64,000 bases of DNA from Eledone cirrhosa. Lineage: Eukaryota. The stretch covers positions 27,342,001 to 27,406,000 of the forward strand of contig OZ024755.1 of NCBI GenBank assembly GCA_964016885.1, written 5' to 3'. Shown here one piece after another: positions 5,283 to 51,004 of the stretch (the first letter of the stretch is position 1; each line of letters starts with the position of its first letter). Made by a program: the position numbers and the translations under genes. A model generated the notes under the pieces. It was not told the origin of the DNA, ran no database searches, and saw only the letters and a list, made by a program, of their open reading frames with translations.

Positions 5283-5628
5283 ATCATCATCATCATCATT
5301 TCATTTTTACGTCCGCTTTTTCCCTGCTTGCAAGGGTGGGACGGGAACTGATTTTGGCTTGATTTCTACAGCTGGATGCCCTTCCTAACACCAACCTCAT
5401 TTACAGTGAGTGCTGGGTGCTTTTTTTCCGTGGCACCTACACGTCCACTTTGCAGTGGAATGATAGGGACCCCAGTCCCTATCATCTCATTTCTACAGCT
5501 GAGTAAACTGGAGCAATGTGAAATAAAGTGTCTTGCTCAAGGAAACAACACATCACCCGGTCTGAGAATTGAACTCACAACCTTTCGATTGCAAGCCCAA
5601 TGCTCTAACCACTAAGCCATGTGCCTCC
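5283..5628 (-). mobile_element. tRNA-derived SINE, CORE-like, with RTE-derived 3' tail
   Basis: A box TGGCTTAGTGG, B box GAGTTCAATTC, CCTTGAGCAAGACAC core, (GAT)n tail; near-identical to 21895-22290. Confidence 0.8.
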
Positions 5629-10505: not shown

Positions 10506-11251
10506 CTGTAAAAGAAAGTAAGATCAGAAGTCTGTAAGTCTTAGAATAAATAGGATGATTAGTTAAGGAATGACATTCATAAGCCTTGAAAAATTAACAT
10601 AGATACCGAACTTTAATGTTCAAATTCCTTATCTGATGTATTTAACTCTTTAGCATTTACATTACTCTATATTTACTATTGTATTTTCACGGTAAAGGCT
10701 TTATCGCATACAATTATTTCACATAATATCAAATATATATTCATGAATATATATTTGATATTATTAAGGCTTTACCTTACATAATATCTCATATAATATT
10801 GAAGCTATAAGATTTTGATATTATTTATTTTGAGAACAATAACTTAACATCAGTATGAGCAACAGGTTACGGCTGGTTTCAACAGAAAGAGGTGAGACAA
10901 TTCTGGCCGGATGCTAAAGGGTTAAGTGATAAGACAAATATTCTATATAAGATACAAGTCCCTTGTTAGAATCTTTCCTTGCTACTTGCACCACATAGCT
11001 TGAGGGAATATAGAATTAAGTAGTCTTCCTACAAACCAAAGAAACTAAGTGATTTTGAACTCATATTACGAATTTGTAACTATAAACATTAGGGAGAAAG
11101 TACATATTGGATATATTGTGCCAAAATAAGATGAGATGGTCATGGCTGGAATGTGTTTGATTATATGCTTCGTGAATCGAAGCTAATGATTGGTTAAACA
11201 ACATTAATAAATCACTTGAAAATGTTCCTGTTGCTTATAGTGGTGGACTAT

Positions 11252-11930
11252 CATCATCATCATCATCATCGTCGTTTAACGTCCATCTTCCACGCTTGCA
11301 TGGGTTTGGATGGGAGGTTTCCCACTTGAGGCAAGATTTATTGTCCTGCTCATACAGGACTGTCTGGCGGGTTTTCCACGGCTGGATGCCCTTCCTAACA
11401 CCAACCACGTTTACAGTGTGGACTGGGAGGTTTTTACCGTGTTACCTACACGGCCACATTACAGCATGGACTGTGTTTTTTTTTTGTCGTGACACCTACA
11501 CGACCTCATTTGTTTCGGACTGGATGTTGTGGCACCAACATAACTTCACATTTAAGGGGGTGGTGTGGATGGGGGGGGGATTTATTTTGTTAGAGGTGCC
11601 TACTGACTGTAGCTTTCGCTTTGTACTTAGGCAAGGCGGGTCTTCTGTATTACTGTGTAGCGCCAAAGATCTCGGTCCAGTGACATTGTCTTGGAGAGGT
11701 GTAAGTGTGTGAGGTCGGAATTTATCAAGTCGTCCCAGGTTTTTCTGGGTCTGCCTACTCCGTGACTACCATCTATTTTTATTGCCCTGCACTTTTTTAT
11801 ACAGCTGTCGTCTTTCATGCGCATCACGTGACCATACCAACGTAGTCTTCTCTCGAGTAAACAACATCTGATCCCTCTTATTCCTAATTTCTCCCTTAGT
11901 TCGTTTATGCTTTGCCGTTCACGTATATTA
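11252..11930 (-). mobile_element. RTE-clade LINE 3' end with long 3' UTR
   Basis: RWYGHVMRM...GRPRKTW C-terminus, then 3' UTR and (GAT)n tail; homologous copies on + at 13568-14050 and 16570-16960. Confidence 0.8.
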
Positions 11931-12135
11931 CTATGTGACTGTGTTGTGTTTTTGTGTAATATATTTGTGTGCGTGTATGTGTGTGTGTATATATGTATGT
12001 TTCTGTGTGTATATATGTGTGTGTGATTTTGTATGGCTATGGATATCTATGTGTGATTGTGTGTGTTTATATATGCATATGTATGCATGATTGTGTTGTG
12101 TAATGTGTGGTGTGTGTGTGTGTGTGTGGTGTGTG

Positions 12136-12177
<42 letters not shown>

Positions 12178-12298
12178 CCTGCATATATGTTTAATTGTGT
12201 GTGATATATATATATATATATACATTTATGTGAATGTGTGCGTTTGTTAGTGTGTGTGTATATATGTATATATAAGTGTGTGATATATAAATATACAA

Positions 12299-13190
12299 TC
12301 TATATATATAAAACTGTGGTTGTCTGTCTGTCTATCGATTTTTGGCACACATCTCCTCTTAGAATCTCTCACGGAATTCCACCGAAATTGCTATACTTGT
12401 ACATTGAGCCCTAGCGAAGACATCGGAAAAAAAAAGATTTCAAATTGACCCACCCTATGTGACGAAATCGAATATAATGTATCGATTTTTGAGCGTAAGT
12501 TATCAGTTATTTCCCTTTGTTCTGTTTACATTGAGCGTCTTACGTAAAAAATTACGCTGGCTTTCTCAGCGTTTAAAATGACATTAACACAATACACGAA
12601 CAGTTGAACACTAAGCTTCCGTTTTGCTTCATTTCCATTTAAAAGCATTTTAAAACAATATTTTTACTTGAAAACAAGTCTATTTAAAGACTACGTAAAA
12701 CAAGCAAATATTTTGTCGGTAGGCGTGCAGACAGACAGTCGTGCAGAGAGGTGATATACGCGTGCAGACAGACAGTCGTGCAGAGAGGTGATATAGGCGT
12801 GCAGACAGACAGTCGTGCAGAGAGGTGATATAGGCGTGCAGACAGACAGTCGTGCAGAGAGGTGATATAGGCGTGCAGACAGACATAACTGATAATTTGG
12901 TTACGCTAATGTTTTTCTCTGCGTTGCAGTGTTTACATTTTCGATCTTTGTTAATAAATAACCAGTGCAGTTTCTATCCCCAGCATCCTCTTTTGTTATA
13001 ACATTCGGGTTATCGTTATGTTTTCTTAACTTCATAAGGCATATTGTTGGTTGAGGGAATATTAATCAAAAACACCACATGCAAGTCTGCACAGTAGACA
13101 CTACAGTTTTTAAGCCAAGAAAGAAACTTAACATTGTAACTTTAACACAGCTATTGAGCGACCCCGAGCAACGCCGGGCTTTACTGTTAG
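12299..13190 (+). mobile_element. non-autonomous Helitron with an internal 37-bp minisatellite (12720-12885)
   Basis: A|TC TATATATATAAAA...CTGTCTGTCT 5' end; GC hairpin CCCGAGCAACGCCGGG followed by TTAG|T at the 3' end. Confidence 0.75.
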
Positions 13191-13525
13191 TATATCAATA
13201 AATGGAAACCACACTCACAAAACCATATTCACTCTATTATACACATTTCAAGGGCAACCAAGGCAAACCATGGCGCGCTTTCATCAGATAAAATACAGGA
13301 AGCTCCAACCATTAAGGTTGTCTTTTTTTCCGGGTATGTCAATATTTATTTATAAAACAAATCTGTATTTTATCTGATGAAAGCGCACCATAACCTGCCC
13401 CGGCTGCCCCCGAAATATGTATAATAAAACAAATATGGCTTCACAAATATAGTTTCCATTTATTAATATAGTGATTATTTACTCCACTTATCTGCTGAGT
13501 GCTTTATATCAGTTATAAAAATTTT
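13191..13525 (+). mobile_element. Penelope-like pLTR remnant with inverted copy and minimal type I hammerhead
   Basis: 108-bp arms 13191-13298 and 13363-13470; CTGATGA 13374, GAAA 13412, stem I TTTTAT/ATAAAA; same family as 45540-46050 and 59588-59705. Confidence 0.7.
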
Positions 13526-13567
13526 TTAATTAAATATAACCTCTGCATATATAAATATTCCGACATC

Positions 13568-14050
13568 ACACACTTACACCTCTCCAAGACAATGTCACTG
13601 GACCGAGACCTTTGGCGGTACTCAGTAACAGAGAAGACCCGCCTTACCTAAATATATAGTAAAACCTACTCCAGCCAGTAGGCATCTCTAACAAAATACA
13701 CCCCGTCCCACCACCACCACCCCACCCCATCCACACCACCCCGTTCTATGTAAAGTTATGTTGGTGCCGCGCCATCCAGGCCGAAACAAATGAGATCGTG
13801 TAGGTGTCACGACAAAAAAACACACAGTCCACGCTGTAATGTGGCCGTGTAGGCAACACGGTAAAAACCTCCCAGACCCACACTGTAAATGTGGTTGGTG
13901 TTAGGAAGGACATCCAGCTGTAGAAAACCTGCCAGACAGTCCTATGCGAGCAAGACAATCACTCTTGCCTCAAGTGGGACTACCCCCGTCCAAACCCATG
14001 CAAGCGTGGAACACGGACGTTAAACGTTGATGATGATGATGATGATGATA
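13568..14050 (+). mobile_element. RTE LINE 3' UTR fragment
   Basis: Inverted homolog of 11252-11715; (GAT)n tail. Confidence 0.75.
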
Positions 14051-14523
14051 TATATATATGTGTGTGTGTATGTTAGGATGTGTGTATGTATATTCTCACA
14101 CTAAAGGAGTAGCAGGAGGCTTTGATTGTTTTTGTTTTGCTCAGCTTTTGTTTATTTAACTGAGTTAATATAACTATTCATGCATACAGCCTTAATATTT
14201 GACAAAAGATACTTCTGTAGAATAGTCTAGAGGTAGCAAGAGAGAGAGAGAGCTGGACTGTAGAAGGTCTTCAGAGAAGAAGCCCCCCTCATGCAAGTGT
14301 TTTGGCCCTTAACTCTCTACACTTTAAGGGGACAAGGCTGGTCACATCTAAGCCATGACACTACGGTGTTCTTCTTCTGATGCATTTTAATCATGTGGAT
14401 GGATATTACAATTTTATTGTTTGTAGGGTATGGGGGGTAAAATGCAACAACTACAGATAAAAATGACAAAGTTACTGCTATAGGCTAACGTGATCTTAGG
14501 GAACACTATACGACTAGACATAC

Positions 14524-14629
14524 CATGGTTCACTGTGAGTACCTTCCTTGACTTCATCTCTAAATACTGTGATATTGGTAGCTGTGCATGAGAAATATTA
14601 GCCTCTTCTGCCAGACGATGGCAGAGACC
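14524..14629 (-). CDS. TRMT10A: TRMT10A coding exon 6
   Basis: TTTTCAG acceptor; GLCHRLAEEANISHAQLPISQYLEMKSRKVLTVNH (Trm10 'AxLPI...RKVLTVNH'); donor G|GTATGT, phase 1. Confidence 0.95.
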
Positions 14630-14819
14630 CTGAAAATTAAAATAAACCATACAGAAATAAATTGAAATAACAAAATAAGTAAAATTTCATCAAATTTTAT
14701 GGTCTTGTCCAATTGACGACTGCAAAGTAGAACATTATAAAAAGGATGATGATCTGCATATGAAAGACTCTCAAGCAAGGGTAGGGAATGCATATACCTG
14801 CAGACAAAACTATATTTTA

Positions 14820-45539: not shown

Positions 45540-46044
45540 GGAAAGTTATATTTAAATTGTTGGGTTAACAACGAGTAAATATTTATAACTGATATAAAAG
45601 CACTCAACAAGTATTTGGAGTATATTTATGATATTAAATAAATGGAAACTATATTTATAAAACCATATTTACTTCATCATATATATTTCAGGGATATCAT
45701 ATTAACAATATGTTATGCCTTCTTCAGACAAAATACAATATAAACAGTCTTATAAATAAATAGATACGACATACCTTTCAATCGACTTGCATTTGGGAGG
45801 TTGATTTGGCAGTAAAAAATATTGTGGACAGTTGTAAAAAGAAAGAGAGAATATATATTTTTTACTGCCTAATCAACCTCCCAAATGCAAGTCGATTGAA
45901 AGGTATGTCGTATCTATTTATTTATAAGACTGTTTATATTGTATTTTATCTGAAGAAGGCATAACATATTGTTAATATGATATCCCTGAAATATATATGA
46001 TGAAGTAAATATGGTTTTATAAATATAGTTTCCATTTATTTAAT

Positions 46045-46050
<6 letters not shown>
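45540..46050 (-). mobile_element. Penelope-like pLTR remnant with ~190-bp near-perfect inverted repeat and hammerhead core
   Basis: Arms ~45629-45822 and ~45853-46050; CTGAAGA-AGG...CCT-GAAA-TATATA; flanked by (TA)n on both sides. Confidence 0.72.
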
Positions 46051-49685: not shown

Positions 49686-49763
<78 letters not shown>

Positions 49764-49770
<7 letters not shown>

Positions 49771-50708
49771 ACACTTTGGGAGGGTCATGTTGCCAATAAG
49801 AAACACACGCACCAGTTGCTTTCACTTCAATTTATTATAATAAATTTATAAGTTGAGGAATTTATAAATTTCCGGTTGGTTGGTTGGTTCCACAACCAGA
49901 TGGTTGTTTATATATTGTCAAACTTCTTTCGTCACACATTATGTGACCTCTTCAGTGACTGGGGGTTCTTTTCTTTGTTTTTGTCTTTTTGTTTTTTTTG
50001 TGCTTCTCCTTTGTTCTGTCCTACGCCATCTTGTTTTTGTGTGTGTGTTGTGTGCTTAGTTTGCGCATGTGTTACATCCGGGTGTCTGTGTGTGTTTATA
50101 TTCGTTTATTTATTTGTTTATTTACATGTTACTGGTTGGTTGTTTGTTCTATGTGCGTGTGTGTTTTCATTTTGTCCTTAATTGTAAGTTGTGATGTTGC
50201 TGTTCCACTCATGTTTTCTATTTAATTTTGGTTGTAATTCATTTATGTTTATTGCCTCTGTGATTTGTCTAAACATTGCGTCTTTTCTGTGTGTAGATTC
50301 TATTTTTATTTCTATGTTCTCTAATTTACCCTTATGTTCTATTTTAGCATGTTGGTAGAGTACAGATGATTCTTTACTATCTTGAAGGTCTCGCCAGTGT
50401 TCATTTATCCGTTCCCCTATACTACGAGCTGTCTCACCTATGTACACTATATTTTTATCTCTACATTGTCCTTCAGTACATCTTATGCTATATACTACAT
50501 TTCTAGTTTTACAGTTAATATGGGGGCTTAATTTACAGATTATACATTTCTTATCTATATATAAACAACCATCTGGTTGTGGAACCAACCAACCAACCGG
50601 AAATTTATAAATTCCTAAATTTATAAATTTATTATAATAAATTGAAGTGAAAGCAACTGGTGCGTGTGTTTCTTATTGGCAACATGATCCTCCCAAAGTA
50701 TAACAATA
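49764..50708 (-). mobile_element. 5'-truncated Penelope-like element: GIY-YIG endonuclease end, hammerhead-bearing pLTR and inverted pLTR
   Basis: ORF 50178-50588 has NCKTRNVVYSIRC...VYIGETAR...RINEH...ITEAINI...LN (PLE GIY-YIG); ~150-bp inverted termini 49764-49915 and 50557-50708; CTGAAGA/GAAA core at 49927-49955. Confidence 0.88.
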
Positions 50709-51004
50709 TCGGTTTCAACACACGTTTTCAGATAAAGAATCTTGCTAAACAAATTCAGAAACGAAATGTATATATATATATATGTACATATATATACATA
50801 TTCATTACGTTTATTGGTTGGTGACGCACGTTTCGCTATTGATCAGCTCAAGGTTCGATCTGTATCGATCTGACCCGAACCGGAATCAAAAGCTCGTCGG
50901 ACCTCTGTTGTAGTAATCGATACAGATCGAACCTTGACCTGATCAATGGTGAAACGCGCGTCACCAACCAATAAACGTAATGAAGGCTTAACAAATCGTC
51001 CTTG

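Follow-up and report, generated by a model that had tools for sequence, protein, structure and literature searches.

A Penelope-like hairpin in a TRMT10-family intron of Eledone cirrhosa, probably a retrocopy of ADAR-edited RNA

The hairpin and its surroundings

The window analysed here is a stretch of 64,000 nucleotides of the Eledone cirrhosa assembly GCA_964016885.1 (contig OZ024755.1), and positions given without a locus or contig name are counted from its first letter. A minus-strand exon at 19590-19727 matches PF01746 and places the host gene in the TRMT10 family of methyltransferases, as had been stated in an earlier note on this DNA; the hairpin itself (13191-13470, called here the C15 copy) is located between TRMT10-family exons at ~14.6 kb and ~10.5 kb, the upstream one being recognised by its translation at 14528-14629 on the minus strand. 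The short arm of the hairpin (13191-13298, minus strand in element sense) and the long arm (13363-13470, plus strand in element sense) enclose a 64-nt loop (13299-13362) whose junction with the arms is identical to that of a twin copy on C9; judged from its sequence, the hairpin is an inverted pair of pseudo-LTRs (pLTRs) of a Penelope-like family. The long arm carries a minimal type I hammerhead-like motif on the plus strand (13366-13431), with CUGAUGA at 13374, a long helix II, GAAA at 13412 and a palindromic helix III, and a mirror copy of this motif sits in the left arm. The long arm is followed by an unpaired pLTR tail (13471-13558, plus strand), which displays no T>C cluster and has a deletion in common with the C9 twin; a 3-base change at 13471-13475, at the outer end of the stem, is private to the C15 copy.

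The end of the left arm is split by a plus-strand insert (12299-13190) which we take to be Helitron-like, from its 5' TC, its 3' TTAG, a subterminal hairpin and its position between A and T. Beyond this insert lie a TG/CA satellite flank (11935-12298), common to C9 only, and a 5'-truncated LINE with an (ATG)n tail (11249-11934, minus strand), presumably of the RTE type and of the same polarity as the edited strand. On the other side, the tail is followed by the 3' fragment of an RTE-type LINE with an (ATG)n tail (13559-14047, plus strand), absent from C9, and by a unique flank (14048-14200) found only in C15 and C9, where the two are 95-96% identical. Since C9 has neither the Helitron-like insert nor the LINE fragment at 13559-14047, both were inserted later. 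Elsewhere in the window, a short repeat at ~1190-1850, the 3' part of which presumably encodes a zinc-finger-like LINE C-terminus (RTE-like), has a copy fused to an edited block on C8, and a tRNA-like Rfam match (5562-5619, 31.2 bits) within a common repeat is likely the head of a tRNA-derived SINE.

Alignment of 13191-13298 with the reverse complement of 13363-13470 reproduced the 108 bp without gaps and the 24 mismatches (13 C/T and 11 A/G) of the earlier note, all of them A.C mismatches on the plus strand and G.U pairs on the minus strand. The predicted fold of the hairpin is of -159.6 kcal/mol on the minus strand vs -104.7 kcal/mol on the plus strand. A search of the organism's own genome (3.0 Gb) yielded 2,391 candidates, the best 30 of which, including the C15 copy, were aligned, and the column majority of the 29 other copies was used as the reference for polarisation. 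All 24 sites, 13 in the left arm and 11 in the right, were found to be T>C on the plus strand (A>G on the minus strand), with no mixture of C>T and A>G; the polarity on both arms, previously deduced from ~10 sites, is thus stronger than had been claimed. No other substitution is present in the 215 arm columns of the C15 copy, and none of the 25 T of the loop is changed. Neither G>A nor C>T was seen in the C15 arms, whereas APOBEC DNA editing is recognised by sense-strand G>A. The remaining 29 copies display at most three T>C apiece, T>C accounting for 27 of their 202 substitutions; against this background, the chance of 24/24 in a single class is about 2e-21.

The exact left-arm 22-mer and right-arm 28-mer of the C15 copy are unique to this locus genome-wide, so that the edited variants are not shared by many dispersed copies. 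Three runs of one sample contain 0.65-0.71 of the words from 11000-14700; these words are not edit-specific, the sample may be the assembly's own and no RNA run was listed with them, and they are accordingly given no weight here. As proposed earlier, hammerhead helix II is damaged by the changes: those at 13410-13411 disrupt it, the family sequence having CTT before GAAA. Other inverted repeats in the window do not share the skew. The 22.8-kb hairpin of the same gene has the mixed substitutions previously ascribed to it, with no A>G excess; an inverted LINE pair (480 bp) that surrounds the C15 element in the same intron is likewise mixed. The hairpin at 45.7 kb (45620-46046), a young pLTR pair of a sister subfamily for which no flank-sharing twin was found, is unedited, with 3 mismatches in 202 bp.

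The element family and its hypermutated copies

In the 30 aligned copies, the element consists of an inverted pLTR pair with a tail on one arm only, set in (TA)n targets. An unedited arm 22-mer has 46,002 occurrences in the genome, and the family therefore comprises at least 46,002 arms. Each arm carries CUGAnGA, a long helix II, GAAA and a palindromic helix III; 170 such hammerhead motifs were counted in the loci examined, with 80 variants of helix II in which compensatory changes were judged by eye. An Rfam search gave no hammerhead match to the arm motifs, and the commonest helix II variants have an A-U pair before GAAA and not the G10.1-C11.1 closing pair. No RT or endonuclease ORF attached to the pLTR family was found upstream of the arms examined, and the PLE ORF near the C9 copy carries a different pLTR; the Penelope-like label is hence a structural one. 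A Penelope-like element on C9 (L077:3418-6665), with a pLTR unlike that of the hairpin family, contains an RT (PF00078, a weak match), a GIY-YIG domain (PF01541) and 1-kb inverted arms that are 99% alike, and a fragment of this element is present at 49707-50783 of the window.

Excerpts of PMC8557442 and PMC11167929 describe a Penelope-like layout of an inverted pLTR pair, a one-arm tail and (TA)n targets, and those of PMC4209133 report minimal hammerheads in PLE pLTRs, with CUGAnGA...GAAA, a long helix II and a palindromic helix III. As far as these excerpts go, the present family is the same in its inverted pair, one-arm tail, (TA)n targets, two end points and hammerhead core; it differs in the A-U pair, in place of G-C, that closes helix II in the commonest variant, in the length of its tail (~90 nt here vs 30-40 nt), and in having been found without an attached RT or endonuclease ORF.

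Further loci were picked by motifs taken from the edited arms, three of which gave 12, 21 and 10 matches, while another matched the C15 copy only; this selection covered T>C/A>G motifs only. When compared to their nine nearest arms, 16 of the 24 loci picked were hypermutated, and the strand-uniform A>G hairpins for which the earlier note had suggested a genome scan are therefore present elsewhere. Nine of the 16 resemble the C15 copy (A>G on one strand, in both arms), one is changed in one arm, four are symmetric and two are single arms. In 136 control arms, which were chosen by similarity and lean young, no transition class exceeded three changes. The eight loci that were not hypermutated are L037, a chance match, and L044, L045, L047, L048, L051, L053 and L082, with no more than five changes per class. 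Edited loci are rare, with ~16 found vs at least 46,002 unedited arms.

In each of the four symmetric copies, one set of A>G changes is present in both arms, which are 97-100% identical with the edits included; this is the pattern that copying of the two arms from a single edited RNA would produce. Every one of the four is A>G in element sense, with no reversed case. Relative to the tail, the edits of L081 are on the other strand than those of the C15 copy, so that the element does not dictate which strand is edited. At L046 (C2:204598500-204599300), an edited head-to-head pLTR tail pair is nested between unedited arms of another subfamily, which suggests that the RT switched onto an edited RNA in mid-insertion. 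L191/L192 (C18:1616769-1618626) is a 1.5-kb local inverted duplication with edited pLTR pairs in both halves.

Unedited twins and their junctions

The best match to the C15 hairpin in the genome is L002, on C9. Both flanks are shared (11935-12298 and 14048-14200), each of them being found at two places only, C15 and C9, and the C9 twin is without the 24 changes. The shared block thus extends over 11935-14200 minus the two later inserts, with its RNA-5' end in the unique flank. At its RNA-3' end it meets the LINE at 11249-11934 through a 2-nt microhomology, so that a LINE 3' end and tail stand at this end of the C15 block in the edited polarity, the same arrangement as at C1 and C8 (see below); in C9, the satellite runs on past the junction point. 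Over 645 sites, 14 changes are private to this LINE, compared to 6-17 for its 11 nearest relatives, and its age is therefore compatible with that of the block. The edit at 13196 is 5 nt from the present end of the stem and ~15 nt from the end that existed before the Helitron-like insertion; given the duplex-end rule for ADAR editing, the greater distance suits early editing.

The RNA-5' junction is the reverse of that seen at C8 and C1: here C15 continues in unique sequence and C9 meets a microsatellite. An (ATG)3 run lies ~290 nt beyond the block in C9 and would offer a possible site of priming, were C9 the daughter copy; the 65 nt preceding it have no other match in the 0.94 Mb of loci examined. 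No target-site duplication (TSD) was found flanking the proposed C15 insertion. Other copies of the same LINE in unique sequence are likewise without a TSD, and a survey of 20 LINE copies was uninformative because most of them lie in (TA)n. A 14-mer test of the origin of the satellite (C9 vs C15) gave no signal. No credible Pfam match to a host gene was obtained within 130 kb on either side of the C9 copy, and its transcription is consequently assumed.

Twins were also sought for other loci, the best 40 candidates being scored for each. Flank-sharing twins were obtained for four of eight edited loci, vs none of three unedited controls; none was found among the best 40 candidates for L080, L081 and L083, and L087 has only a local inverted duplicate. 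The C12/C8 pair is alike over 2,566 bp except for 32 substitutions; in C8 all of them (32/32) are A>G, with 25 falling in the hairpin and 7 in a microsatellite. C12 runs on at both ends of the block; C8 has a microsatellite at its start and, at its end, an RTE-like short element without counterpart at that point in C12. The C2/C1 pair shares a block of 5.8 kb, made up of ~3 kb of flank and a LINE with a terminal (ATG)n; at either end of the block, C2 goes on into an older LINE and C1 meets microsatellite, and this end structure marks C1 as a LINE 5' transduction. The C1 copy has 32 A>G on the LINE-sense strand within the two 500-bp bins covering the hairpin, and ~1% of mixed change elsewhere. 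As read from the junctions, the edited copy is the retro-insertion in both pairs (C12 to C8 and C2 to C1). In the C4/C28 pair, whose block ends at the short pLTR end and whose direction (C4 to C28) we assume, 53 of 55 substitutions in the hairpin are T>C, and the adjoining 962 nt have 4 T>C among 23 substitutions.

The C12 donor (L090, C12:32737607-32740164) lies ~900 bp past the stop of an RB-family (p107/p130-like) gene, on the edited strand; this location would fit an edited 3' UTR or run-on RNA of that gene having been retrocopied. Exons of an eRF3/HBS1-like GTPase gene (L145:1570-1755 and L149:7470-7652) come to an end ~10 kb away from the C2 donor and are antisense to the edited RNA. Around the C8 and C1 copies, no credible Pfam match to a host gene was found. 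In the (TA)n/(CA)n parts of the edited copies, T>C makes up 7/7 substitutions in C8 (L089) and 48/70 in C28 (L187), where the alignment is uncertain; edited retrocopies may thus turn (TA)n into (CA/TG)n repeats.

With the four pairs pooled, 132 of 466 helix A were changed, vs 3 of 151 outside the helix; the corresponding counts for the C15 copy and its C9 twin are 24/90 and 0/45. Sorted by 5' neighbour, the changed A number 77/188 after U, 43/174 after A, 10/66 after C and 2/38 after G, and the depletion of 5' G is significant (p=5e-4). The 5' neighbour preference claimed in the earlier note reaches significance only in the pooled pairs; for 5' U or A it is slight in the C15 copy (21/24 edited A vs 42/56 unedited A), in which 5' G was edited 0/5 times, too small a count. 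Depletion of 5' G is an ADAR signature common across animals, according to excerpts of PMC5625713. Being confined to helices, in one direction and avoiding 5' G, the changes support, at the level of sequence, ADAR hyper-editing of dsRNA that was then reverse-transcribed, one of the routes considered in the earlier note. As in the hyper-editing of palindromic repeats described in those excerpts, dense A>G occurs in a self-folding repeat and 5' G is avoided; there the difference is between RNA and DNA, whereas here it stands in the genome assembly (PMC5625713).

Routes from edited RNA to DNA

That edited RNA became DNA by some route is, in our view, highly probable. The C15 hairpin is probably a retrocopy of an ADAR-edited C9 transcript, inserted already edited by way of a LINE. 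In such a history, the C9 block would have been transcribed through its inverted pLTR pair, and ADAR would have deaminated about a quarter of the stem adenosines; a LINE RT, primed on LINE RNA at the TRMT10 intron, would have changed template to the C9 RNA once ~690 nt had been copied, inosine being read as G; the edited insertion would have entered the germline, and the Helitron-like element and the second LINE would have been inserted afterwards. In general terms, a pLTR-hairpin transcript would fold, be edited by ADAR and be copied to a new site by a LINE or Penelope-like RT. If the C15 hairpin is an edited retrocopy of C9 RNA, its match to the TRMT10 strand is a one-in-two coincidence. This match had been taken earlier as a pointer to the host transcript. 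Against that reading stand the unedited C9 twin and the junction of the block with the 3' end of a LINE whose polarity is that of the edited strand, the two other pairs in which the edited copy is a new insertion with a template from another chromosome, and the occurrence of both polarities relative to the element tail (L081 being the opposite of C15).

The main alternative is that the hairpin was rewritten in place: the block would be native to the TRMT10 intron, C9 would be an earlier, unedited retrocopy, and cDNA of the ADAR-edited TRMT10 pre-mRNA would have replaced the hairpin by homology, perhaps when the RT switched from LINE RNA during insertion of 11249-11934, the remainder of the satellite being deleted. 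We consider this rather unlikely, even though it accounts for the edited strand being that of TRMT10, for C15 running on in unique sequence at 14200 where C9 meets a microsatellite, for the (ATG)3 beyond the C9 block, for the private change at the outer stem end (13471-13475), and for the lack of a TSD at C15 and of a detected gene around C9. A single locus would have to have undergone two rare events, namely an earlier retrocopying (twins were found for 0/3 controls) and a conversion that deleted several hundred bases; in both pairs of readable direction it is the newly inserted copy that carries the edits, and A>G skew is absent from the 480-bp inverted LINE pair of this intron. In its specific form, that during a LINE insertion in the TRMT10 intron the RT moved onto the nascent ADAR-edited pre-mRNA and that the cDNA overwrote the germline template in place, the idea is unlikely; if true, such overwriting would be a direct, locus-specific path from an RNA edit to an inherited DNA change.

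The other explanations fit the data less well. ADAR is known to act in vitro on the DNA of hybrids, and deamination of DNA itself (that of a hairpin, or the DNA strand within an R-loop or RNA:cDNA hybrid) would also give strand-uniform changes; it is nevertheless very improbable, as the edits track intramolecular helices and not the extent of a hybrid (see the pooled counts above), kilobases of co-copied flank are unedited, and the edited copies stand at retro-insertion junctions. The changes were read from assembly sequence, and at C15 the edited strand is that of the host pre-mRNA, as would be expected had RNA-derived reads or polishing placed edited bases in the consensus. Polishing, however, cannot create edited duplicates with retro-insertion junctions on other chromosomes, or copies with identical edits in both arms; it would require most reads to be edited at all 24 sites, and the other hairpins of the same gene are unskewed, so that an artefact of this kind has little probability. 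Ordinary mutation, with selection keeping G-U wobbles in a pre-mRNA hairpin, would agree with the far better fold of the minus strand, but would admit C>U on the RNA strand as well, which is the case for 0 of the 24 sites; in C12/C8, 32/32 changes are A>G in an otherwise identical 2.5 kb, and the absence of any other arm substitution from the C15 copy leaves no time for 24 single events. The probability of this last explanation is close to nil. Both wobble selection and the action of ADAR on DNA, put forward as alternatives in the earlier note, thus fit the twin pairs poorly.

The retrocopy route has several known counterparts. LINEs give rise to 5' transductions and to template-switch chimeras such as U6-L1, in which the 5' part of a cellular RNA is fused to a retroelement 3' end; the copies described here are built alike, with a 5' part from a cellular RNA and the 3' end and tail of a retroelement, and differ in that the captured RNA is hyper-edited, which marks donor and recipient. 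RNA edits also reach DNA through reverse transcription in A>G hypermutated avian retroviral proviruses and in organelle retroprocessing; those cases concern a virus in culture and C-to-U editing in plant organelles, respectively, whereas the present ones are nuclear retrocopies in the germline. Excerpts of PMC4866542 and PMC2873906 describe APOBEC DNA editing of LTR retrotransposons, with G>A changes fixed in vertebrate genomes, and report APOBEC-type editing to be absent from invertebrates, where a screen of LTR elements for G>A gave only noise. Compared to what these excerpts describe, the principle is the same, in that a deaminase acts on a retroelement intermediate, whose hypermutated copy is then integrated and passed on, recognisable by one-way clusters vs an unedited relative. 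The differences are that the changes here are A>G and not G>A, are confined to RNA helices and come with non-element flanks, and that the routes are non-LTR and Penelope-like, in an invertebrate-type genome.

An excess of A-to-G substitution at edited sites has been described for cephalopods, flies and humans, the single-site changes being ascribed to selection, and in the excerpts of these sources no mention of a reverse-transcription route was found (PMC7703385, PMC7186786). In those reports, as here, an edited A is replaced by a genomic G; here, dozens of changes per event arise in new copies. Human L1 is restricted by ADAR1 without editing of L1 RNA, according to an excerpt of PMC5224506, and a 2026 preprint on retrozymes and Penelope-like elements makes no mention of ADAR or octopus (10.64898/2026.07.22.740005). 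In the literature searched (titles and abstract openings, with few subscription journals), no paper on fixed ADAR-edited retrocopies was found; such retrocopies with donor/recipient pairs, while expected in principle, are apparently undocumented.

RNA edits are normally not inherited. Because further edited/unedited pairs exist in this genome, it is likely that RNA edits became inherited mutations here; in the pairs, ADAR-type edits are seen to enter germline DNA in bursts, each hairpin receiving 24-53 changes, and their entry via LINE and Penelope-like RTs would be the A-to-I counterpart of APOBEC DNA editing. The cases seen alter new non-coding copies and not existing genes, and no function is implied for the copy in the C15 intron. 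Edited retrocopies of this kind would constitute a fossil archive of RNA editing in the germline or early embryo, with the edits marking the donor and the recipient of each retrocopy, and the pairs make it testable whether genomes bear a mutational trace of heavy editing.
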